A stretch of 17,918 nt of DNA from an uncultured archaeon (lineage in GTDB: Archaea > Asgardarchaeota > Lokiarchaeia > Sigyniarchaeales > SOKP01), in assembly GCA_964632315.1 (NCBI GenBank), contig CAZWEM010000066.1, forward strand, positions 1 through 17,918, written 5' to 3'. The notes beneath the pieces were generated by a model that made no database searches, was not told where the DNA came from, and worked only from the letters and a program-made list of their open reading frames with translations. A program made the translations under genes and the position numbers. This document shows, one piece after another, positions 2,629-17,620 of the stretch; position 1 is the first letter of the stretch, and the number at the start of each line of letters is the position of its first letter.

Positions 2629-3717
2629 ATGGGAATTAAATTAAAGGATTTGGTCCATTCAGAACAGATTAACAGATCAGAATTAGCTGGTGCTGTAATT
2701 GCTATTGATGCTCCAAATATTATTGCCAGTCTCCTTTCTTTTTCTCGTAAACAGACCGATCACTCAAAATTCTTTTTTGATTCTACTCAGCGACCAATAT
2801 CTCATTTATACGGCTTGTTATATCGGATGAATTTTTATTATTCTAAAAGGATTCTTCCCATCTTTTGCTTCGATGGTGTCGATTCCGAATTGAAACGATT
2901 TCATACAACTGATAAATTACATGATTTTCGGTTCTATGAAAAATGGAGAAAGCAAGCATTAGAGAATGGTGACTGGCAAAAAGCTCGAAATATAGGCTTA
3001 AACAAGAATTACTTATGGGCTAATATCATAAAGGAATCCAAACAGTTATTAGGAGCATTAGGGGTTCCTTATCTAACATCTCCAGCCTCTGCGGAATCTC
3101 AATGCGCTCAATTAGTGAAGGATGAAATAGCTAAGTATTCAAACTCCCAGGATTATGATTCATTACTATTTGGATGCCCTAAGATCGTAAGGAACCTATC
3201 CAAATCGCTCAAGCGAAAGATTAGGGGCAGATGGATTTATGAGAAAGTACAACCAGAACTCATCGATTTGAAGAAAACCTTGGAAGGATTACGGATAAAC
3301 CAATTCCAGTTGGTAGATATGGGACTGTTGATTGGTACGGATTATTTTTCGGGGATCAAAAATATTGGACCAAAAACGGCATGGAAAGCAATTAGGGTTC
3401 ATAAAAACATAGAAACCGTGATAGAAAACTTGAAAGAGAAATTTGACTTTTCCGAGTTAGATCCTGAGATAATCAAAGACGTGCGTAAAATCTTCTTGTT
3501 TCCCGAAGTGTTAGAAACTTATCCTGAATTTCATTGGGACCCTCCCGTTGATTCCCTTGTTATAAAATTAATGTGTAAAGATCATAACCTCGATCAACTA
3601 AAAGTAGTTAATAACCTTGAGAAAACTTCCAATAATTATTATAAAACCATCGAATATTGTTCAAGACACTTAAATGAACCAAGAAACATCCAAAAAACTC
3701 TTTTTGAAAAATTATAA
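2629..3717 (+). CDS. fen: Flap endonuclease-1 (XPG/Rad2 family), divergent paralog
   Basis: MGIKL N-terminus, IAIDA, SHLYGLLYR, FCFDG, SQDYDSLLFG, LIGTDY..GIKNIGPKTA (H3TH), C-terminal PIP-like QKTLFEKL. Confidence 0.93.
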   Translation: MGIKLKDLVHSEQINRSELAGAVIAIDAPNIIASLLSFSRKQTDHSKFFFDSTQRPISHLYGLLYRMNFYYSKRILPIFCFDGVDSELKRFHTTDKLHDFRFYEKWRKQALENGDWQKARNIGLNKNYLWANIIKESKQLLGALGVPYLTSPASAESQCAQLVKDEIAKYSNSQDYDSLLFGCPKIVRNLSKSLKRKIRGRWIYEKVQPELIDLKKTLEGLRINQFQLVDMGLLIGTDYFSGIKNIGPKTAWKAIRVHKNIETVIENLKEKFDFSELDPEIIKDVRKIFLFPEVLETYPEFHWDPPVDSLVIKLMCKDHNLDQLKVVNNLEKTSNNYYKTIEYCSRHLNEPRNIQKTLFEKL

Positions 3718-5331: not shown

Positions 5332-6261
5332 ATGAGTTCGTTCAGTGAAGATTTATACCAAACCTTGATTACAGAGGGAATGAGCGAAGAAGAAATTGAA
5401 GTGGCTATTAAACAGAAAAAAAGAGAATTTGGAGGATTCATGACCCTTCAAGGAATGCTGTTTCTTATTGCTAAAGAACGTGGTATCCTAATTCGTAATC
5501 CCGATCTTGATTTAAACGTGTATAAGGCCGCAGAGGAAGAAATCGATTATGATGAATTCACAATTCCAATCAACAAGATCAAAGAAGGCATGACCAATAT
5601 TGTAATTTTGGGAAAGTTAATAAGATCCTTTCGAATTCGTGAATTTAACCGTAATGACGGTTCGATGGGAATGGTGGGTTCGTTCATTATACAGGATGCT
5701 ACAGATGCCATCAAGATTGTAGCTTGGGATGAAAAAGTGAAACCTCTTCAGTCTGATTACTTCAAAGAAGGAACATTCATGCGGGTAATTGGAGGATATA
5801 GTAAACTCGGACGAGAAGGTGCCCTTGAAATTCACGTGGGGAAAAAAGGAAAACTCGTTCTTTCTCCTGAGAATATCAATGCCAAGGTTAAAGATAAATT
5901 GGATTCCATTCAAGTGAAAGATAGCAAAAGAAATATAAAAGATGTAACCACAGTTTCGTTGAAAACACTCATGGATGAGAATAAATTTATTTCACACGTA
6001 GAAGGTGTGGTCCAAGTAGAAGAGTTTAAAGAAGTCACGTTGAAATCAGGAGAAAATTCTTTCTTACTAAAACTAATTTTAACTGATCGCAATGACAATT
6101 CGGCAAGGATCATTATTTGGGGAGAAGATGCGGTTAATTCACTGAAGATCATCGAAGAGGGGATGTCATACCAATTTCACAATTTAATGGTAAAAAATAA
6201 CACCTATTTGGGAGAAAAAGAGTTATCTTTTACTCGAAAATCATCATTATCTCCCACCTAA
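5332..6261 (+). CDS. Replication protein A-like ssDNA-binding protein (N-terminal helical domain plus two OB folds)
   Basis: N-terminal EEEIEVAIKQKKREFGGFMT..GMLFLIAKERG typical of archaeal RPA. OB1: IREFNRNDGS.GMVGSFIIQDATDAIKIVAWD. OB2: LILTDRNDNSARIIIWG...ELSFTRKSSL. Confidence 0.88.
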   Translation: MSSFSEDLYQTLITEGMSEEEIEVAIKQKKREFGGFMTLQGMLFLIAKERGILIRNPDLDLNVYKAAEEEIDYDEFTIPINKIKEGMTNIVILGKLIRSFRIREFNRNDGSMGMVGSFIIQDATDAIKIVAWDEKVKPLQSDYFKEGTFMRVIGGYSKLGREGALEIHVGKKGKLVLSPENINAKVKDKLDSIQVKDSKRNIKDVTTVSLKTLMDENKFISHVEGVVQVEEFKEVTLKSGENSFLLKLILTDRNDNSARIIIWGEDAVNSLKIIEEGMSYQFHNLMVKNNTYLGEKELSFTRKSSLSPT

Positions 6262-7611: not shown

Positions 7612-7779
7612 ATGATAATGAATATGGATAATAATGTAAAAATCCTCCAACCTTCAGTTTGTAGCAGTCCAAAAGTCCATCAAAAGTTTTGCTATTTAAA
7701 CTATTTTTATGTACTTCTGATATTTAATAGTGTAAAGAATTGGAACTTCTTAAAGGTGAATCATCGAAATGACGATTAA
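7612..7779 (+). CDS. Candidate unannotated 55-aa small ORF between the roadblock and GTPase genes
   Basis: GAGGTGA at 7597-7603, ATG 8 nt later. MIMNMDNNVKILQPSVCSSPKVHQKFCYLNYFYVLLIFNSVKNWNFLKVNHRNDD fills the whole gap and overlaps the GTPase start. Confidence 0.35.
   Translation: MIMNMDNNVKILQPSVCSSPKVHQKFCYLNYFYVLLIFNSVKNWNFLKVNHRNDD
7754..7759 (+). promoter_or_regulatory. Shine-Dalgarno-like AGGTGA for the MglA-type GTPase
   Basis: AGGTGA 9 nt upstream of ATG 7769. Confidence 0.6.
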
Positions 7780-8428
7780 ATCAGAGAAAAATAAGGATGT
7801 AGAATTCAAATCCGGTTCAAGTGACATACCCCTCGTAGATATACTCCAATTTAAAATAGTATATTGGGGGCCAGGAGAGTCGGGGAAAACTACTAACTAC
7901 TTTCGATTACGGGAAAAATTTGATGGGGTGAAGTTGAATCGAGGTATTTCAATTGAAACTACTGATGGCAGGACTTTATGGCAAGATTCTATACGGCTTT
8001 CTTTCTATTTAGTAATTGGAAATTCCAAATTTAACATCATTACACAAATTGTTACTTGCACGGGGCAAGAAAGGTTCTTATCTACCCGAGAATATGTGTT
8101 AGATGGAGCAGATGGCGTTATATTCGTAGCAGATTCTCATCCTGATCTATTGGAGCAAAATAAGCGCAGTTTTCGAGAATTAGTGTCGTTTGCGACGCCT
8201 CATAAAGTACCTTACCTAATCCAACTAAACAAGCGGGATTTACCGGAAGCCATTTCAATTGAAGAATTTAAAAATCAGTTAGACCTTCCCAAGTTCGAAC
8301 GTTATGAAGACGGGACGAGAGTGCTATATCCTACTATCGCAACAGAGGGAAAGAACGTTAGGGAGTGTTTTGAAGATCTAATGACTCAAGTTATTTACAA
8401 GTATTTTTTAGCCCTAGCTGGGATGTAG
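7769..8428 (+). CDS. mglA: MglA-family small GTPase (Ras superfamily)
   Basis: KIVYWGPGESGKTTN (G1), GRTLWQD (switch I with intrinsic Arg-Thr), TCTGQ (G3 lacking Asp, as in MglA TVPGQ), GADGVIFVADS, NKRD (G4), IAT (G5). Confidence 0.9.
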   Translation: MTIKSEKNKDVEFKSGSSDIPLVDILQFKIVYWGPGESGKTTNYFRLREKFDGVKLNRGISIETTDGRTLWQDSIRLSFYLVIGNSKFNIITQIVTCTGQERFLSTREYVLDGADGVIFVADSHPDLLEQNKRSFRELVSFATPHKVPYLIQLNKRDLPEAISIEEFKNQLDLPKFERYEDGTRVLYPTIATEGKNVRECFEDLMTQVIYKYFLALAGM

Positions 8429-10418: not shown

Positions 10419-10547
10419 GAGACATTCATCTATTGCATTATCTTGGATTAAGTAACCATCATTTCTTTTTAAATGACAAAGAAAAAAAATCGTTTTAAGA
10501 CCTTTATGAGTAAATTTTAAGGTGAATCTTCTAGGATATTTATTTCA

Positions 10548-10565
10548 ATGAAATTCAAATTTCAT
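10548..10565. promoter_or_regulatory. Perfect inverted repeat ATGAAATT-ca-AATTTCAT, candidate operator
   Basis: 8-bp arms with a 2-nt spacer, centred in the divergent intergenic region between the TFB-like gene and the Rad50-like operon. Confidence 0.45.
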
Positions 10566-10631
10566 GATACTTCATCCCAAATGATATTTTACAAAACCTT
10601 CACTATACAAATATTAATAAATGCAATAATA

Positions 10632-10648
10632 CCAAAATTATTATATTA
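10632..10648 (+). promoter_or_regulatory. Candidate BRE/TATA promoter for the five-gene operon
   Basis: ccaaaatta-TTATATTA ending 28 nt before ATG 10677; fits a nearly leaderless archaeal transcript. Confidence 0.4.
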
Positions 10649-10676
10649 GTCTGACAAAAGACAAACAGAATTTAAA

Positions 10677-10934
10677 ATGAGTTTTAAATTTAATATTTCA
10701 GAAATTTTAACCGGGTTTGAATTATCAGAGCGTGAGCGCAGTAATTTAGCTAGATTATTTGACTACACTAACTTTTTATATGATGATGAGACCAATTTGA
10801 CCAAAACGTTTAATTTAGTCAAAGGAGCTCGTGAAAAGCTCATGGAACGAATTAGTGAGATGTTTGAATCGGATCTATTTGAGGATGAATCAATAGAAGC
10901 GGAGGAAGAATTTATGGAGGAAAAGGGCCAATGA
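10677..10934 (+). CDS. Small acidic helical hypothetical protein, first gene of the operon
   Basis: 85 aa with acidic tail EMFESDLFEDESIEAEEEFMEE; ATGA overlap with the next gene. Confidence 0.8.
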   Translation: MSFKFNISEILTGFELSERERSNLARLFDYTNFLYDDETNLTKTFNLVKGAREKLMERISEMFESDLFEDESIEAEEEFMEEKGQ

Positions 10935-13450
10935 TTCAATCTATTCGCGTAAAGAATTTTCGAAAACACGAGGATTTAACTTTAGATTTCGATGAAAAAT
11001 TCAACCTAATTCACGGAAGGAATAATGCAGGCAAGTCCACCTTATTTTATGGGATAGAATATTGCCTTTTTGGTAACGTGCAAGGTTTTAAGAAAATTGC
11101 TCAACTCGCAAAATTCAAGAAGAATGCAGTAGGAGTCCAGTTGATATTTCATGGAAAAGATGGAAATACCTATAAATTACAGCGAATGCATAAATTAAAA
11201 GGGAAAAGCAAGTCTGCCCAAGGGTTTTATACCCTTAAAAAAATAACAGATGATGGAGAAGTCTATTTATTATCTTCCGATCACGGAAATCGAGAAGAAG
11301 ACTTGTCATTAAAAATAAATCAGATATTAGGCATTTCAAAACGGTTTTTTGAGACTGGAGTCCATTTTTATCAAGGTTCAGTTTCGGATATTCTCTCGGG
11401 AGATAAAAAATTGGATATAGTGTTCGGCATTAAATCTGCAATCGCTTTAGCCGACGTATTTAAAGATAAAGCATTGGAATTTGAACGAGAAATAAAAAAT
11501 ATTCCGGTTTTTGAGTCTAACTTAACTCAATCCAAAAGTGAAAAAGAAGAATACAGAAAAAAGCTTTCCTCACAAGAGAAACAACAAGCTACTATTAATG
11601 AGGATATAAAAACAAAAGAAAATGAGTTAAAAACATTTGAAACCTTTAAATCTTCTTCTGAGACTTTGTCTGATGTAGTGCTTCAGTTTGAGAATAAAAA
11701 ACGGGCACTTGATGATATCAAATTAAAAGAGGAAGTAATCGCAAAAGAAAAAGAGGACACGATTAACAAATTTGGAATGAAATCTAGCATAGAAAAATCA
11801 CTTGCATTAGATAAAAAGAGTCTAGATGAGGTAAAAAAGAAGTTAGAAATATCGGAGAAACAAATCGAAGCGATTCAACAACAAATTAGGAAATTAGAGA
11901 AAGATAAGGTAGAAACAGAGACCTTATTAGGTCAAAAGAAAAAGCTTTCAGAAGAATTGGATGCAATCGTCAAAGACGTGGGAGGTAAAGAGGACTTAGA
12001 AAAAAAATTAACCGCTCAGAAGAAGGATTCGAAGGATATCTCAAAGAAATTGGCTACTTTAGAGAAAAAAAATGAGGAACTTCAAAAATTTTTTAGGGAT
12101 ATTGAAAGGGAAAAAGGAGATATTGAAGGAATTCTTACACGGAGAGAGCAGTCAAAAGGAAAACCTATATGCGAATATTGTGGTGCTCCTATTGATCCCG
12201 CAAAAATTAAAGATGAGATCAAGCAATTTAAAGCTAAATTAACCAAAATAGATGAAGATATTAACTCCAATGAAAAGAAAAGTGCAGACATTAAATCGGA
12301 ACTCCTCCAATTAAGGGAAGATGAGAAAGCAATTGAGAACAGCATCAACAAGATTACTGCTAACATTGAGAAGATTGAAAATCTTTCTAATGCATTAGAA
12401 ACATCATATGGAGAAGAGTTGGATACTAAACTTGATGGTCTTAAGGATAGCATCATCAAAGAAGAATCAAAACTCGAAAGCGAGAAGAAGAACCTAACAA
12501 TTTTTCGACAAAAAGAGCAAGAACAGTTAAAAAAAATGAATGAGTTTCAATCACAAATTGAGAAAATAGACGAAATAGAAGTAAAAGTTTCAAAAATACA
12601 GGATGAATTAGAGGATATTCAGACTCAATTTTCAGAGGGGAAAGACAATCTTCTTGAAACCATTAAAAGGGCTAAAACACAAATTTCAGAAAATCTCAAA
12701 GTAATCAAGAAAAAAGGTAATGAAGAATCATTTACTACTTATTTTGAAAAGTTAATAGTGCGCATGGGGGATATTACTGAAAATTTCTCATTAAAGGAAA
12801 TACAAAGCATTAAGGATGATTTAAAAGAATTAGTCGTCAAGAAGTTAACGGAAATATCGACAAGTCTCAGTCATTTAACTGATCAAAAAGACCAAATTTT
12901 AACTGAAATAGAAGAAACGAAAGATCATGTAAAAAGACTGGATCGACAAATAGCAAATACCGAAAAAGAAATCCAGATCCTTCATAAGAAGGAGACGATT
13001 GCTGAACGATATCGTTCATATCAAAATGTTTTTAAAGACGCCCAATCCATAATCCGGGAAAACGCTTCCAGTATTTTAGAAGAAAAAATACTTGAAATGC
13101 ATAAAAATCTTTCTACTACTGATGAGTTTGACAAAGTCTTTATCGACAGTAATGACTATAGTCTTTCAGTGACACCCAAAGGACTTGATATGAATGAATC
13201 ATATCCCGCTGCTTTATATGAAGGAGGTGGTCATAGATTAATGCTTGGCCTCTCTTATAAATTCTCTCTCGGAAAAGTTATTGGGGATGCTCCATTTCTG
13301 TTAATTGATGAGCCTACAGAATTTATGGATGTGGAAAATAGGGTCAATTTATTGTCCAATTTACCCACAATTGCTGAAGGTACCCAAATTTTGTTAATCA
13401 CTCATCAAGATGTGGATAAAATTCAATGTGATAAAAGAATAGGAATTTAA
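10931..13450 (+). CDS. Rad50/SbcC-like SMC-family ATPase with zinc hook and non-canonical signature motif
   Basis: MIQSIRVKNFRKH start, Walker A GRNNAGKST (11015-11041), Q-loop FYQG, long coiled coils, central CEYCG hook (aa 414, 12170-12181), signature EGGGH, Walker B/D-loop LLIDEPTEFMD, H-loop LLITH. Confidence 0.92.
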   Translation: MIQSIRVKNFRKHEDLTLDFDEKFNLIHGRNNAGKSTLFYGIEYCLFGNVQGFKKIAQLAKFKKNAVGVQLIFHGKDGNTYKLQRMHKLKGKSKSAQGFYTLKKITDDGEVYLLSSDHGNREEDLSLKINQILGISKRFFETGVHFYQGSVSDILSGDKKLDIVFGIKSAIALADVFKDKALEFEREIKNIPVFESNLTQSKSEKEEYRKKLSSQEKQQATINEDIKTKENELKTFETFKSSSETLSDVVLQFENKKRALDDIKLKEEVIAKEKEDTINKFGMKSSIEKSLALDKKSLDEVKKKLEISEKQIEAIQQQIRKLEKDKVETETLLGQKKKLSEELDAIVKDVGGKEDLEKKLTAQKKDSKDISKKLATLEKKNEELQKFFRDIEREKGDIEGILTRREQSKGKPICEYCGAPIDPAKIKDEIKQFKAKLTKIDEDINSNEKKSADIKSELLQLREDEKAIENSINKITANIEKIENLSNALETSYGEELDTKLDGLKDSIIKEESKLESEKKNLTIFRQKEQEQLKKMNEFQSQIEKIDEIEVKVSKIQDELEDIQTQFSEGKDNLLETIKRAKTQISENLKVIKKKGNEESFTTYFEKLIVRMGDITENFSLKEIQSIKDDLKELVVKKLTEISTSLSHLTDQKDQILTEIEETKDHVKRLDRQIANTEKEIQILHKKETIAERYRSYQNVFKDAQSIIRENASSILEEKILEMHKNLSTTDEFDKVFIDSNDYSLSVTPKGLDMNESYPAALYEGGGHRLMLGLSYKFSLGKVIGDAPFLLIDEPTEFMDVENRVNLLSNLPTIAEGTQILLITHQDVDKIQCDKRIGI

Positions 13451-13462
13451 TGAGGGATTTTA

Positions 13463-13987
13463 ATGCCTGAGTTAGAAAATAAGGAGTTTAATGAAGCAAT
13501 AAAGGAATTTAAAGATGATGTTCAAGGTATATATTTAGGGAATGAAGATAATTTTAAAGATCTATTTATTACAGCCCAAAAACAAGCTGAGACTGCTATC
13601 TCTCTTGATGATTTTAAACGTAGATTAAGTTTATACATCATTAAAGAACTAAGCATTATGCTTAAGAACGATGAATTAGATCATCGAGATTTTTTTCTTG
13701 ATGGATTAAAAAATAGTGAATTTTGGAAACCATTAGCTAAATTAGTACTGTTTAAGCGTATTGAAGAGTTAAAAAACTGCAAAGTTTTAAAGAAGGGGAA
13801 AAAGTACGATGTCTCAGGATTAAAAGAGACATTTTTTGGTAAGTTTATTATGGAACGGTTGAAGTTTGAACGAAGAACAGTTCTAATGGATGAAGAGTAT
13901 ACCAAAATCACGAATGCTATAAAGAAGTTAAATTATGAAGTTCCTGTGGTAATTCAACCTACAGAAACAGAGAAGTTTTTTAAATAA
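13463..13987 (+). CDS. Hypothetical protein (174 aa), operon member
   Basis: 12-nt gap after the Rad50-like stop with GAGGG upstream; 9-nt gap to the next gene. No nuclease or phosphoesterase motif seen. Confidence 0.82.
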   Translation: MPELENKEFNEAIKEFKDDVQGIYLGNEDNFKDLFITAQKQAETAISLDDFKRRLSLYIIKELSIMLKNDELDHRDFFLDGLKNSEFWKPLAKLVLFKRIEELKNCKVLKKGKKYDVSGLKETFFGKFIMERLKFERRTVLMDEEYTKITNAIKKLNYEVPVVIQPTETEKFFK

Positions 13988-13996
13988 ATAATTTAA

Positions 13997-14935
13997 GTGA
14001 AAAAAATGGCAAAAAAAGTAGTAGAGTCAAATATTGATAGTGATGATTTTGCTAAATTGATGGAAGCGAATGTTATAAAAGATATTCGAGAAGAAATCAA
14101 ATTGGTATTGGAAGGGCAGTATAAGTATGCTTATGAGGCGATGATGGATGCATATCATGCTGGGTTATTTGTGGGTTTGGTAGGACCAGTGGGATGTGGA
14201 AAAACTGCCCTATGTCGAAAATTTGCGTATGACTTGGAAAGGGAGTTTTATTGGGTTACTTTTTCCGATTTGGTAAGACCAGCAACTTTAATCGGCTCGT
14301 TTGATCCAACTCTGGTTTTTAAATATGGGTTTTCCGCAGAATCTTACATTCCGGGACCTTTTACCTTAGCATCATTAAAAGGGGGCGTTTTCTTGGCAAA
14401 TGAGTTGAATAGAGGTGATGAATACGTACTTAACAGCATGCTAGATGCTATGGAAGAGAGACGCTTGTATATCCCCCAATTAAAGACATGGATGAAAGCA
14501 CAAGATGAGTTTTATGTCATCGCAGCAATGAACCCAGCAGAGCTTAAAGGGACTCGAAAACTTCCCTCAGCAATCAAAGATCGAATCAAAGTATGGATTC
14601 ATCTTGATTATCCACCTCGGAGTTTAGAACAAAAAATAATGATTGCTAACTGTCCAGAATATCAATTATCAGCGATGACGCAGGAAAAAATTATCGAGCT
14701 AATGATTGGTGCTCGAGATGACCCGATTGTAGAGAAACCTCCCAGTCTTAGAACGAGCATTGGGCTTGCCCGATTTGTTTCTGAAAGAGCCCAACGATTG
14801 AAGCTTTCCGTGGATAATAAATTGATTGCGGAATGTGCTAAATTAATTCTTCCTGATTCCATCGAACTTCGTCCTGGACGGGATGTGAATAGTTTCATTA
14901 AAAAGTTATTGACAAAAGTAGTAGGAGTCGCTTAA
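13997..14935 (+). CDS. MoxR-family AAA+ ATPase (AAA_5/CoxD/GvpN-like)
   Basis: Walker A GPVGCGKT, LIGSFDP, YIPGPF, Walker B FLANELNR, AMEERR, sensor-1 AAMNP, Arg finger SAIKDR, LDYP, sensor-2 PSLR. Alternative ATG start at 14006. Confidence 0.93.
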   Translation: MKKMAKKVVESNIDSDDFAKLMEANVIKDIREEIKLVLEGQYKYAYEAMMDAYHAGLFVGLVGPVGCGKTALCRKFAYDLEREFYWVTFSDLVRPATLIGSFDPTLVFKYGFSAESYIPGPFTLASLKGGVFLANELNRGDEYVLNSMLDAMEERRLYIPQLKTWMKAQDEFYVIAAMNPAELKGTRKLPSAIKDRIKVWIHLDYPPRSLEQKIMIANCPEYQLSAMTQEKIIELMIGARDDPIVEKPPSLRTSIGLARFVSERAQRLKLSVDNKLIAECAKLILPDSIELRPGRDVNSFIKKLLTKVVGVA

Positions 14936-14959
14936 AAGTAGAGATTAGAAAATTTTCTT

Positions 14960-17530
14960 ATGACAGAAAATAGTAAAATAGATCAAGGCAAAGTTGGCAC
15001 TTTTTGGAATAATCAAGTGTTAGGTTGGGACCCCATTTCATTTACTATTGAATTCATATATCGAATGCGGAAAATAAGAAAAAAACTACTTAATCTTCCA
15101 AGTACGCGTCAAGCAATCGCCATCCCTAAGTTGATGACTGCCATGTATTATCGTAAGCTAAATTTAATCCCAGATGATTATATCAAAGCAGCAGTAATAA
15201 CGACTCCAATTGAAGATCAAGAGATTGCCAGAAAAGTAGCATTTGAAATCTTATTTAGCGATCCAGATGCTAAGAAAAAGTCAAAAAAAAAGGTCAAGAG
15301 TAAGGATAAAGTAGGATTAGTTGCAGATATCGAGGATAGAGATGAGGGTGACTTCATGGATGATCTGCTTTCTGAAATTATGGATTCTGGAATAGACATG
15401 CAGAATGTGAAAATGGATGATCTAATAGATCAAACTTTAGAAGAATTTTCTAATTTAATGGAATTTATTGATGCGATATATGAAAAAGCAGGTTTGGGTG
15501 AAGATCCGTATGAAAGTTTGATCGATATAATTGAACGGCGAGAAGGGTATAAAGAATTACTTGGAAGGGGAATTTCTTCATTGGAACAATTAAATGATTA
15601 CGTGCACCAAATGATCTTGCGTGAAATGAACGTGTTATCACCCCAAGATATTAAATCTTCAGTAAATTTAGGTTGGGGTGATGACATTATCAATCAAGCA
15701 CCCAATCCTTGGAGCAAGGCCAGTGCAATGTATCAGGTGATCTCCCCCGAATTCAGGAATTATCTTCAAGATGTAATGGATCATGAGGAAGTTGCTACTG
15801 CTGCACGAACCGCTCGCTATCTTCAAGAGTCAGGCATGAATCGTACAGACGCTGAAAAATTAACAGAAAAACTCATAGAACGGGCAACTGATATCATGGA
15901 TATCAATGAAATAACAAAAGTGATGGAATCCATCCCTAAATTCGATCGCCAACAAATAATAAACAAAAGTCTTAAACGCGATATGGGCATCTCATTTCGG
16001 ATTTCTCGTCAAATGGATAAGAAATATAATGATAATATCACAAAAGATATGTTTCAAGAATGGGCGAAACAAAGCTCTTCTCCTTCTTTACCAGAGTTAT
16101 TCCAAGCACACGTGGACACACCAGAGTGGAAACAAATGGTAGATGACTGCATCTCCAGAGAGATTAACCAAACTTCAAGTGCCAATGGAAAATCAGCATA
16201 TAATCTGACAAGCCTAGCTTGTGATCTCATGAATCTCTCTCAGGAAGTCGAATATATAGAATGTGCTCAATATCTTAAAGAAAAAGCAAGTTTGGTCGGA
16301 ATGGAAGCATTGAAAAAAGCAGTCGATGAAGAACAGTTCAAAAATGTATTAGAAACGCTATTAAATGCTTTTATTCAGGTAAATGAAGGAGAAGTGATCA
16401 CTTTAGCTAAGACTTTAGGTGTTCCAGAAGATGAAGTCATCGAGATTTTAGGAGGAAATTATGAGTTATTAAAATCGCTCATTTCTGAAAAAATTGGCAA
16501 TTTTCAACGTTATACTAAAATATTGAATAATATTCCCTCTCTTTCTGGTGATCAAGTGAAGGAATTATTAAATATTGCCTTAAAAGCAGGGAATTTTCAA
16601 GCAATGGGAGCGTTAGGGCATCATAATCTGGGGCAAGCTTTTCAAGCTTCAGAACAAATGGGAGGTACCACCACAATGCAGCTTTCAGAATCCTTATCTG
16701 CTGGTCCAGGGGATAATTTATTGCTACAATGGTTTACACATCGCGATAGAATTCCCTCAAAAGCAAAAGAATTTGTAAGGAATTTAGTGAAAGATGCCCT
16801 CATTAAGATTGCTCTTAACATGATTTCAAATCAACGGGGAAGTGGAGAGAAAGGATTAGTTCCAACAAATAAACTCCGAATTTTTATTGATGGGGATGAT
16901 ATGGATTTGATTGATGTAGATGCTTCCATCGAAAATATAGTAATGCAGGGTAAATCCATAGACATGGTGACTCCTGAAGATCTTTTAGTAATGGAAACTG
17001 AAAAAGGCAGGGTTTCTATCTGCTTTTTACTTGATATTTCTGGCTCAATGACGGGTATGAAACTAGCTGCTTGTTCAATTGCAGTAATGGTATTGATAGG
17101 TGCCCTAAGGGCAGAAGAAGTAGCCATTTGTTTCTTTGAATCAAACACTCATATTGTCAAAGAATTCGGTGACGTGAAGGATTTAGAAGACGTAGCTGAT
17201 GAATTGTTAGATTTAAAGGCTAGAGGTGGTACACGCGTACAAAAGGCATTAGAGTGGGGAGCACGACAGTTAGAAGAAACAACGACTGAATTAAAAGTAT
17301 GTTTTTTATTAACTGATTGCGAATTTTTTGAAAAAAAAGAGCAAATTGTAAAAGAACTTGACTCATATGTGAATCAAAAAGTAGAGTTCTTGCTGGGTGT
17401 TAACACTCGTTCCTTTTCAAAAAAATATGCCGATTGGATTTTAGAGTCTACGCAGGGAAAAATAGTATATATCTTGAACATCATGGATATTCCTAAAATC
17501 CTTACAGAACTGCTGGAACAAATAGGTTAA
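14960..17530 (+). CDS. Large vWA (MIDAS) domain protein, MoxR partner
   Basis: C-terminal vWA: pre-domain DLIDVDASIEN, MIDAS DISGS (17033-17047), GGT, FLLTD. Long all-helical middle; N-terminal AAA-lid-like segment followed by a basic/acidic linker. Confidence 0.92.
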   Translation: MTENSKIDQGKVGTFWNNQVLGWDPISFTIEFIYRMRKIRKKLLNLPSTRQAIAIPKLMTAMYYRKLNLIPDDYIKAAVITTPIEDQEIARKVAFEILFSDPDAKKKSKKKVKSKDKVGLVADIEDRDEGDFMDDLLSEIMDSGIDMQNVKMDDLIDQTLEEFSNLMEFIDAIYEKAGLGEDPYESLIDIIERREGYKELLGRGISSLEQLNDYVHQMILREMNVLSPQDIKSSVNLGWGDDIINQAPNPWSKASAMYQVISPEFRNYLQDVMDHEEVATAARTARYLQESGMNRTDAEKLTEKLIERATDIMDINEITKVMESIPKFDRQQIINKSLKRDMGISFRISRQMDKKYNDNITKDMFQEWAKQSSSPSLPELFQAHVDTPEWKQMVDDCISREINQTSSANGKSAYNLTSLACDLMNLSQEVEYIECAQYLKEKASLVGMEALKKAVDEEQFKNVLETLLNAFIQVNEGEVITLAKTLGVPEDEVIEILGGNYELLKSLISEKIGNFQRYTKILNNIPSLSGDQVKELLNIALKAGNFQAMGALGHHNLGQAFQASEQMGGTTTMQLSESLSAGPGDNLLLQWFTHRDRIPSKAKEFVRNLVKDALIKIALNMISNQRGSGEKGLVPTNKLRIFIDGDDMDLIDVDASIENIVMQGKSIDMVTPEDLLVMETEKGRVSICFLLDISGSMTGMKLAACSIAVMVLIGALRAEEVAICFFESNTHIVKEFGDVKDLEDVADELLDLKARGGTRVQKALEWGARQLEETTTELKVCFLLTDCEFFEKKEQIVKELDSYVNQKVEFLLGVNTRSFSKKYADWILESTQGKIVYILNIMDIPKILTELLEQIG

Positions 17531-17546
17531 AACTTGATAAGATCTA

Positions 17547-17553
17547 TTTTTTT
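17547..17553 (+). terminator. Oligo-T (T7) putative terminator of the five-gene operon
   Basis: T7 tract 16 nt after the vWA stop codon. Confidence 0.45.
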
Positions 17554-17620
17554 GTGATAAAACTTAAGTTTAGACTTATCTATTTTTCAATCAATTAATA
17601 AATCCAAAGCATTTCATAAA

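Follow-up and report, generated by a model that had tools for sequence, protein, structure and literature searches.

The stretch of DNA analysed here – a window of 17,918 nucleotides (nt), contig C66 of a 4.45-Mb, 99.5%-complete genome of the Promethearchaeota (Asgard archaea of Lokiarchaeia type) – carries a tight array of five genes that joins an SMC/Rad50-like ATPase to a MoxR-type AAA+ ATPase and a protein with a von Willebrand factor A (vWA) domain. Five plus-strand open reading frames (ORFs) fill positions 10677 to 17530, with junctions of -4, 12, 9 and 24 nt, and these coordinates match exactly what an initial reading of the letters (the sequence-only reading) had claimed. The order which that reading gave – a protein of 85 amino acids (aa), a zinc-hook Rad50-like ATPase, a 174-aa protein, a MoxR ATPase and a vWA protein – is upheld by the ORFs and their Pfam domains, and by the hook as read in an alignment (Table 1). 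The start of the MoxR gene is possibly the ATG at 14006 instead, in which case the junction before it is 18 nt.

The TATA-like words upstream of the array and the T7 tract downstream were also reported at the outset, and both are present. The upstream spacer is, on its sequence, a presumed promoter; in genomes where the five genes are linked to mre11-rad50 its place is taken by a gap of ~70 nt after rad50. The GC content of the operon is the same as that of its surroundings, and a scan of the window against Rfam found no RNA family. The genes for a FEN1/XPG-family protein, an RPA-like protein with two OB folds and an Arf/Ras-like small GTPase that lie upstream in the window are not kept beside the operon in other genomes.

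Table 1. Coordinates of the operon, its flanking features and the loci in other genomes to which the text refers
Feature	Position or locus	Strand	Basis
AT-rich upstream spacer, 258 nt, containing TATA-like words; here a presumed promoter	10419..10676	+	Sequence reading
Gene for 85-aa protein; ATGA overlap with next gene (translationally coupled)	10677..10934	+	No family match
Gene for 839-aa SMC/Rad50-like ABC ATPase	10931..13450	+	Pfam AAA_23/SMC_N/AAA_27
Gene for 174-aa basic protein	13463..13987	+	No family match
Gene for MoxR-type AAA+ ATPase, 312 aa	13997..14935	+	Pfam AAA_5, AAA_3
Gene for 856-aa vWA adaptor protein	14960..17530	+	Pfam VWA_2, VWA at residues 688-786
T7 tract (T7 at ~17546-17552), candidate archaeal terminator, 13-22 nt past stop	17543..17555	+	Sequence reading
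FEN1/XPG-family gene	2629-3717		
RPA-like gene, two OB folds	5332-6261		
Arf/Ras-like small GTPase gene	7769-8428		
Complete five-gene loci	L048/L060/L063, L049/L065, L051/L042, L052, L053, L054/L064, L056, L057, L059/L068, L061, L066, L067, L069		tblastn and ORF mapping
Five-gene loci on short contigs	L050, L055/L043, L070, L062		
rad50-linked arrays	L059/L068 (G158), L061, L066 (G057), L067 (G156), L069 (G155), L070 (G160)		
Paralogous MoxR-vWA modules	G000 contig C47 (L041:8721-14542); L046; L073:5389-11538		
704-aa SMC-like subfamily	L057:3574-5688 (P0036-P0043)		
775-aa SMC-like protein outside the family	L058:463-2790 (P0057)		
174-aa homolog with BRCT domain	L062:1078-1959 (P0133)		Pfam, 29.8 bits
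SF1 helicase heading mre11-rad50	L059:886-5361; L061:870-5342; L066-L069		Pfam AAA_11/AAA_12
Two small genes among rad50, module and ligase	L043:4839-6190; L061:18746-20379; L066:241-984		No family match
Divergent genes beside the operon in Ca. L. ossiferum	L056:15721-20616		

Evidence that the five genes constitute a unit came from their distribution. Mapping by tblastn and ORFs over at least 17 loci showed that, wherever the contig is long enough to hold the whole array, neither its gene content nor the order and orientation of its genes changes, and loci on short contigs are consistent as far as they can be read. Because the genes recur in this order at every such locus the arrangement is far beyond chance. 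The synteny holds while identity of the SMC-like protein ranges from 35% to 85%, and the operon is present in the closed genome of the cultured Ca. Lokiarchaeum ossiferum. In no locus examined does the SMC-like gene occur without the MoxR-vWA pair: the coupling that the sequence-only reading had proposed from one stretch of DNA is thus a matter of co-conservation. The module – as we shall call the five genes – occurs in 16 of the 161 genomes of the class and in 6 of its 30 genera, is confined to Promethearchaeota and, given this patchy occurrence, is accessory. Between G000 and L059 the SMC-like proteins are 47% identical and the vWA proteins 54%, as compared with 51% for Mre11 and 36% for Rad50, a similarity of divergence that would fit vertical descent with losses.

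The lineage contains two further classes of MoxR with a long vWA protein. Their vWA proteins are ~30% identical to that of the module, against 43–63% within the SMC-linked class, and in both classes the place of the SMC trio is taken by a ~790-aa protein that follows the pair, bears a SWIM-like HDCP...CxH motif and belongs to no Pfam family. This supports the view that the MoxR-vWA pair is a portable remodeller whose client is set by the genes linked to it. One of the two classes, present in nearly all genomes of the genus beside coaBC and a Dam-type methyltransferase gene, is a core module. A search of the published literature (incomplete in coverage and no proof) turned up no account, for Asgard archaea or for other organisms, in which an SMC/Rad50-like ATPase is tied to a MoxR-vWA pair; neither there nor among the PADLOC system profiles did we find a match for the combination, in agreement with the initial opinion that it is not a named system.

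The SMC-like protein carries two coiled-coil arms, each of ~230–265 aa, that meet in a zinc hook. Across 16 homologs the hook cysteines (C414-x-x-C417) are invariant together with flanking residues G396, G400, R404, R405, G418 and I421, as are Walker A (G29...G34-K35-S/T-T37), Q148, Walker B (D793-E794), D800 and H825. The ATP-binding cassette (ABC) signature departs from the canonical LSGG(E/Q): it reads (Y/F)(E/Q)GGG, with G765-G766-G767 invariant and a glycine at the serine position in 16 of 16. The closest profile is that of archaeal Rad50 (129 bits), followed by PADLOC LmuB (107), ASRP (71) and arcadin-4 (63), and the nearest solved structures are the Rad50 heads of the PDB (3e-15). Against the NCBIfam Rad50 models the protein scores 129 bits for a cut-off of 847 (NF002244) and 102 for a cut-off of 700 (NF003034), and the cut-off does not discriminate here because genuine Rad50s also fall short of it: the genome's own Mre11-linked Rad50 scores 172 bits and none of 14 control genomes passes. 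The ASRP and arcadin-4 scores lie beneath both the Rad50 score and their own NCBIfam cut-offs (300 and 860 bits), which places the protein in neither family, and the match to the LmuB model (PDLC03859, 4e-31) covers only model positions 5–482 of 611.

Separation from canonical Rad50 is seen in a tree of head domains (42 sequences, 359 columns; IQ-TREE, LG+C20), the sample for which included no sequences of ASRP (ClsN, Sph), arcadin-4, LmuB or bacterial SbcC. All members of the SMC-like family fall in one clade (100/99), carried by a branch of ~0.95. The Mre11-linked Rad50s of Asgard archaea form a clade of their own (100/100), and the groups in which it is nested (99/98 and 100/99) take in other Rad50/SbcC-like proteins but leave the SMC-like family outside. 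A joint clade of the SMC-like family and Asgard Rad50 is rejected by the approximately unbiased (AU) test (log-likelihood difference 66, p 8.5e-5), with the caveats that branches are long, that the group tested was named after the tree was seen and that the deep position of the SMC-like family is not resolved. The SMC-like protein is separate from canonical Mre11-linked Rad50, and origin as a recent tandem duplicate of a neighbouring rad50 is rejected by both tree and AU test. The family comprises ~55 clusters at 90% identity, all from Promethearchaeota, beyond which scores fall from ~300 to 90 bits; a search of this genome with the SMC-like protein found no second copy of its gene. A single outside sequence groups with the family (99/99), a 22% identical SMC-like protein of 775 aa from a contig too short to reach a MoxR-vWA pair. 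There is, in addition, a subfamily of 704-aa proteins in which each arm is symmetrically shorter by ~70 residues while the hook and the five genes are kept, and arm length must therefore be adjustable in register.

The two small proteins have no Pfam, NCBIfam or PADLOC family. The 85-aa protein has a conserved core (residues 1–65) with an invariant DxExNLTKTxNL motif (10 orthologs, 46–64% identity). It had been described as acidic, and an acidic tail is indeed present here, but the tail is missing from many orthologs: it is not conserved and is thus ruled out as a conserved ligand for a metal-ion-dependent adhesion site (MIDAS). The 174-aa protein is basic and is modelled as an alpha/beta fold (predicted local distance difference test, pLDDT, 87.7) with an invariant C-terminal PTxTExFF motif that is of low confidence in the model and probably flexible. 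Searches for structural relatives of this protein yielded none at E <= 0.001 with Foldseek, Atlas scores of 0.86 or less, and with VIA a best Z of 7.0 to generic helical bundles covering residues 1–104. Its family (73 clusters) has the same taxonomic range as the SMC-like family. One homolog, which keeps the operon position before the MoxR-vWA pair, has an N-terminal BRCT domain; a 178-aa gene that follows rad50 in this genome was considered as a relative, and the comparison shows no relation.

The MoxR protein belongs to AAA_5 (71.6 bits against a Pfam cut-off of 22) and has an invariant Walker A motif, GPVGCGKT. Its orthologs are 78–88% identical, even to L. ossiferum, whose SMC-like protein is at 35%. 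Walker B (V-F-L-A-N135-E136; residues 133–136 at 14393–14404) reads hhhhNE rather than the canonical hhhhDE, an Asp-to-Asn change that is invariant in nine orthologs and in both paralog classes and that retains the catalytic Glu. The bpMoxR profile gives 19.1 bits, under its cut-off of 27. A specific link to Midasin was considered and rejected: the top solved-structure score of 106 bits adds up six AAA modules, no single Midasin module scores above 37.8 bits (bacterial MoxR 2r44 reaches 56 and NorQ 36), and paralogous MoxR behaves alike.

Adjoining the MoxR gene – at 24 nt here, and as the next gene in every ortholog locus – is the gene for the vWA protein. The model of this protein (pLDDT 83) comprises a helical N-domain (residues 25–98), a disordered acidic linker (103–150), an all-alpha region of 470 residues (153–623) and the vWA domain (634–856). 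With 39.9 bits VWA_2 clears its cut-off of 27, and the MIDAS is complete: of its residues T758 is conserved in at least 90% of 35 sequences, and D692, S694, S696 and D786 in all of them. Compared with solved folds the vWA domain reaches a best VIA Z of 19.7 (root-mean-square deviation, rmsd, 2.5 over 173 residues); the longest coverage is given by NorD in the NorQ-NorD complex (9qh8_G; Z 18.9, 230 residues), and the MIDAS domain of MDN1 is also matched. VWA_CoxE stops just short of its cut-off (25.5 against 26.4 bits), so that the protein lies outside the curated NorD, CbbO and CoxE families; no NCBIfam equivalog matches it, nor does any family match its N-terminal 630 residues. The long-vWA family is a small one: 104 representatives were recovered at E <= 1e-30. 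For the alpha-solenoid the Atlas gave no usable match and PDB searches were swamped by the vWA domain; Ro60, OGT and SPY, considered as solenoid relatives, align at an rmsd of 17–34 A, which is not meaningful. Profile-profile comparison pairs the lid/sensor-2 segment of MoxR (residues 232–269; 14690–14803) with part of the vWA N-domain (29–67; 15044–15160) through a shared PSxR...I...L pattern at 75% probability, and no match was found when the C-terminus of MoxR was compared with the N-terminus of the vWA protein by BLASTP. There is thus moderate support for an AAA-lid-like N-domain which, with the acidic linker after it, would resemble the layout of ChlD/BchD.

A critical issue is the company that the module keeps. 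Contig C13 of this genome opens with a canonical pair, mre11 (Metallophos, 524 aa) and rad50 (903 aa), so the SMC-like protein is not its only Rad50; within the operon, the position that mre11 would hold is occupied by the 85-aa gene, which has no family match. The absence of a nuclease from the operon, claimed at the outset, holds in this genome, but in at least six others the module is placed directly after mre11-rad50: a superfamily 1 (SF1) helicase, mre11, rad50 and the five genes follow one another on one strand, with 67–72 nt between rad50 and the 85-aa gene, and the SMC-like protein comes in addition to Rad50, as a further ATPase of the array. In two of these loci (L061 and L066) a gene for an ATP-dependent DNA ligase lies convergent after the vWA gene. 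In G023 the helicase, mre11, rad50, two small genes and ligase are followed by the module on the opposite strand, which is the layout expected from a single inversion of the array. In G158, G057 and G155 (92–96% complete) the mre11-rad50 of the array is the sole one in the genome; the module is therefore attached to a housekeeping repair operon, and the suggestion of an accessory island with a private mre11-rad50 is rejected for these three genomes, each of which has one locus, G023 having two.

Several features of these neighbourhoods are worthy of record. The helicase that heads mre11-rad50 is a 1,490-aa Upf1/Dna2-like protein that replaces herA-nurA, and the ~960 residues on the N-terminal side of its core belong to no Pfam family. 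G023 has two full mre11-rad50 loci (contigs C66 and C190; Rad50 of 904 and 887 aa), and the Mre11-linked Rad50s of this family also split into two subclades that are ~36% identical; the duplication and the split could reflect paralogy or contamination (6%). Two small proteins without family are conserved among rad50, the module and the ATP-dependent ligase, and Pfam and PDB profile searches, at the level of sequence, detected no Ku signal in them. In L. ossiferum genes for proteins of 380, 173 (weakly PLD-like and FilR1) and 858 aa without family run divergent beside the operon, and are followed by actin.

How might such a machine work? In MoxR-vWA pairs such as CbbQ-CbbO, NorQ-NorD, Mg-chelatase and Rea1/Midasin, the ATP-driven motion of the ring reaches a client by way of an adaptor, the MIDAS of which grips an acidic residue. 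Rad50 and SMC proteins form hook-linked dimers that bind, tether or entrap DNA through ATP-dependent engagement of their heads. We suggest that the five genes encode one machine of two modules. The first would be a homodimeric zinc-hook Rad50-like ATPase with the 85-aa and 174-aa proteins as obligate partners, and would bind or tether DNA, most likely at ends or breaks. The second would consist of the MoxR AAA+ ring and a long adaptor in the style of NorD and CbbO; the MIDAS-vWA domain or the alpha-solenoid of the adaptor may grip the first module – perhaps at the acidic motif that is conserved at the C-terminus of the 174-aa protein – with ATP used to load, unload or reset it. Under this proposal the SMC-like complex would be the client and the MoxR-vWA pair its remodeller, the whole acting alongside Mre11-Rad50, and possibly DNA ligase, in the handling of double-strand breaks; in the present genome it would have become physically split from the mre11-rad50 operon.

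The sequence-only reading had offered chromosome organisation, a scaffold and conflict as possible functions. These we retain as rivals, but genomic context, in which mre11-rad50 and ligase repeatedly adjoin the module, points more specifically to the ends and breaks of DNA. A role there draws further support from an ATPase that is closest to Rad50 and has invariant motifs, from the BRCT domain on a homolog of the 174-aa protein, and from an intact MIDAS in a domain that resembles those of NorD and MDN1. An accessory complex for DNA ends or double-strand-break repair, loaded, unloaded or remodelled by MoxR-vWA, is accordingly our preferred account, one to which we would give almost, but not quite, an even chance. 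A bolder version, which we regard as doubtful, gives the pair the dedicated task of loading or extracting, by means of ATP and a MIDAS, a Rad50 paralog that entraps DNA, at chromosome breaks and in concert with Mre11-Rad50 and possibly with a ligase for end joining.

A number of observations count against the repair account. The module is dispensable, being present in ~10% of the genomes of the class. In about half of the genomes with readable context (the window, G005, G068, G069, G075, L. ossiferum and L057) it lies away from mre11-rad50, among unrelated housekeeping genes, and a single ancestral joining may lie behind all six identical arrays, so that the independent events perhaps number no more than one or two. 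No DNA-binding fold is recognisable in either small protein, the structure searches having covered the 174-aa protein. The GGG signature and the NE Walker B may signify that the ATPase cycles are unusual. Finally, the contact predicted to join the 174-aa and vWA proteins, although it speaks for the account, is weak. With vWA residues 150–856 and Mg in the model the median score is 0.43, the best control stands at 0.00, and the outcome is graded as weak support. Of 80 solved complexes 58 attain the mark in question, 7 of them at 0.60 or below; of 110 mismatched pairs 2 attain it, both at 0.60 or below. The runs agree in at least 66% of contacts, and the pLDDT of the partners is at least 73.

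The foremost alternative is defence against viruses or plasmids, the SMC-like protein serving in the manner of Lamassu as sensor of foreign DNA ends or replication intermediates, and MoxR-vWA as activator or effector arm. The patchy spread of the module would suit such a role, as would the variability of flanking genes between genomes and the standing of LmuB as best PADLOC model of the ATPase; moreover, counter-invader systems centred on MoxR-vWA have been described in bacteria (bioRxiv 10.1101/2025.10.09.681413). However, family and structure searches found no effector domain – nuclease, peptidase, TIR or similar – in the five proteins, and the four other than the ATPase have no meaningful PADLOC match. 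The neighbours are housekeeping genes rather than defence islands, the sole hint to the contrary being a SIR2_2 gene 5 kb away in L060, and several genomes append the module to their only mre11-rad50 operon. Conservation of the kind seen in MoxR would also be unusual for a component caught in an arms race. We consider defence unlikely.

A second alternative takes the SMC-like protein for a coiled-coil ATPase akin to ASRP/ClsN or arcadin-4, part of a chromosome-organising or cytoskeletal scaffold that MoxR-vWA assembles or takes apart. The NCBIfam scores to ASRP and arcadin-4, weak as they are, point this way, and L. ossiferum has an actin gene on the opposite strand, ~4.5 kb away from the operon. 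Yet those scores are far below cut-off and below that of Rad50; presence in a tenth of genomes is a poor fit to a core chromosomal role; and the recurrent neighbours are mre11-rad50 and ligase, not genes for actin, SMC or segregation. A scaffold thus appears quite improbable.

It is also conceivable that the SMC-like protein is a 'Rad50B' that pairs through hooks or heads with canonical Rad50 to form an asymmetric ATPase, the other genes regulating the hetero-complex. Its position directly after rad50 in six genomes, and a degenerate signature that could mark the one impaired site of a heterodimer, are what this predicts. Against it stand the lack of linkage to rad50 in about half of the genomes, this one included, the distance between the family and the neighbouring Rad50 (the AU test above), the possession of two small partners of its own that are strictly co-conserved, and possibly, unless Rad50 varies with it, the variation in coiled-coil length exemplified by the 704-aa forms. 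The idea strikes us as very improbable. That the locus is merely two unrelated neighbours, an SMC-like trio and a MoxR-vWA pair with some other client, could appeal to the paralogous pairs that partner the ~790-aa SWIM-like protein, but the SMC-linked pair is a class of its own without that partner, trio and pair are never apart across genera, an inversion and changes of context, and we give the notion next to no credence.

If the preferred account is correct, and MoxR-vWA loads or removes a Rad50-like ring at DNA ends, then the module represents a new class of MoxR client and a new regulatory layer in the handling of DNA breaks, in a lineage of archaea that is the closest to eukaryotes. Were the dedicated loader or extractor to prove real, it would provide a prokaryotic, Asgard-specific precedent for the stripping or resetting of repair factors on DNA by eukaryotic AAA+ proteins, of which p97 acting on Ku, and Midasin-type MIDAS domains that pull on clients, are parallels. 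The superfamilies of the components are all known, and SMC/Rad50-type ATPases and MoxR-vWA remodellers have each been studied in depth: what is new, as far as the literature search reached, is the fixed coupling of SMC/Rad50 to MoxR-vWA, and a Rad50-like family with two new small partners. The repeated siting of the module behind a sole mre11-rad50 refines the picture of double-strand-break-repair loci in Asgard archaea, with an SF1 helicase, and not HerA-NurA, as neighbour. With the operon present in a cultured organism, L. ossiferum, and five proteins of tractable size, the hypothesis is directly testable.

Among known systems, Lamassu (LmuA-LmuB-LmuC) likewise encodes an SMC/Rad50-like ATPase, to whose LmuB our protein scores 107 bits, alongside a small accessory protein; in PADLOC, however, the operon shows neither an LmuA-type effector nor a match to LmuC and is not assigned to Lamassu, it carries the MoxR-vWA pair instead, its coiled coils are about twice as long and bear a zinc hook, and it lies outside defence islands. 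The bacterial MoxR-vWA ternary conflict systems described by the Aravind group share the plan of MoxR, vWA and a third, variable, sensor-like component. In the module this third place is taken by an SMC-like ATPase and its two small proteins, the bpMoxR score (19 against 27 bits) falls outside the family, and the N-terminal part of the vWA protein is all-helical without an effector family. With Midasin/Rea1 the module has in common AAA_5-type modules, a MIDAS domain that pulls a client, and an acidic linker in the MIDAS-bearing polypeptide; the 106-bit score, as a six-module sum, shows no specific evolutionary link.

Two further known systems have counterparts in the operon. Like Mre11-Rad50, the SMC-like protein has a zinc-hook CxxC at the apex of its coiled coils, and its ABC heads contain both Walker motifs together with the Q-, D- and H-loops; unlike it, the family forms a separate, long-branched clade with a GGG signature, an 85-aa non-nuclease protein stands at the position of mre11, the gene is always followed by those for the 174-aa, MoxR and vWA proteins, and the whole is present in ~10% of the genomes of the class. 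NorQ-NorD and CbbQ-CbbO offer the counterpart for the second half: a ~310-aa AAA_5 MoxR beside a protein of ~850 aa with a C-terminal vWA domain and an intact MIDAS, together with the logic of ring, adaptor and client. Here the Walker B is hhhhNE, and the adaptor has a lid-like N-domain, an acidic linker and a 470-aa alpha-solenoid, with no relatives detected beyond an Asgard-centred family. The client differs as well: where those systems attend to a metalloenzyme or to Rubisco, the presumed client of the module is an SMC/Rad50-like DNA ATPase complex.

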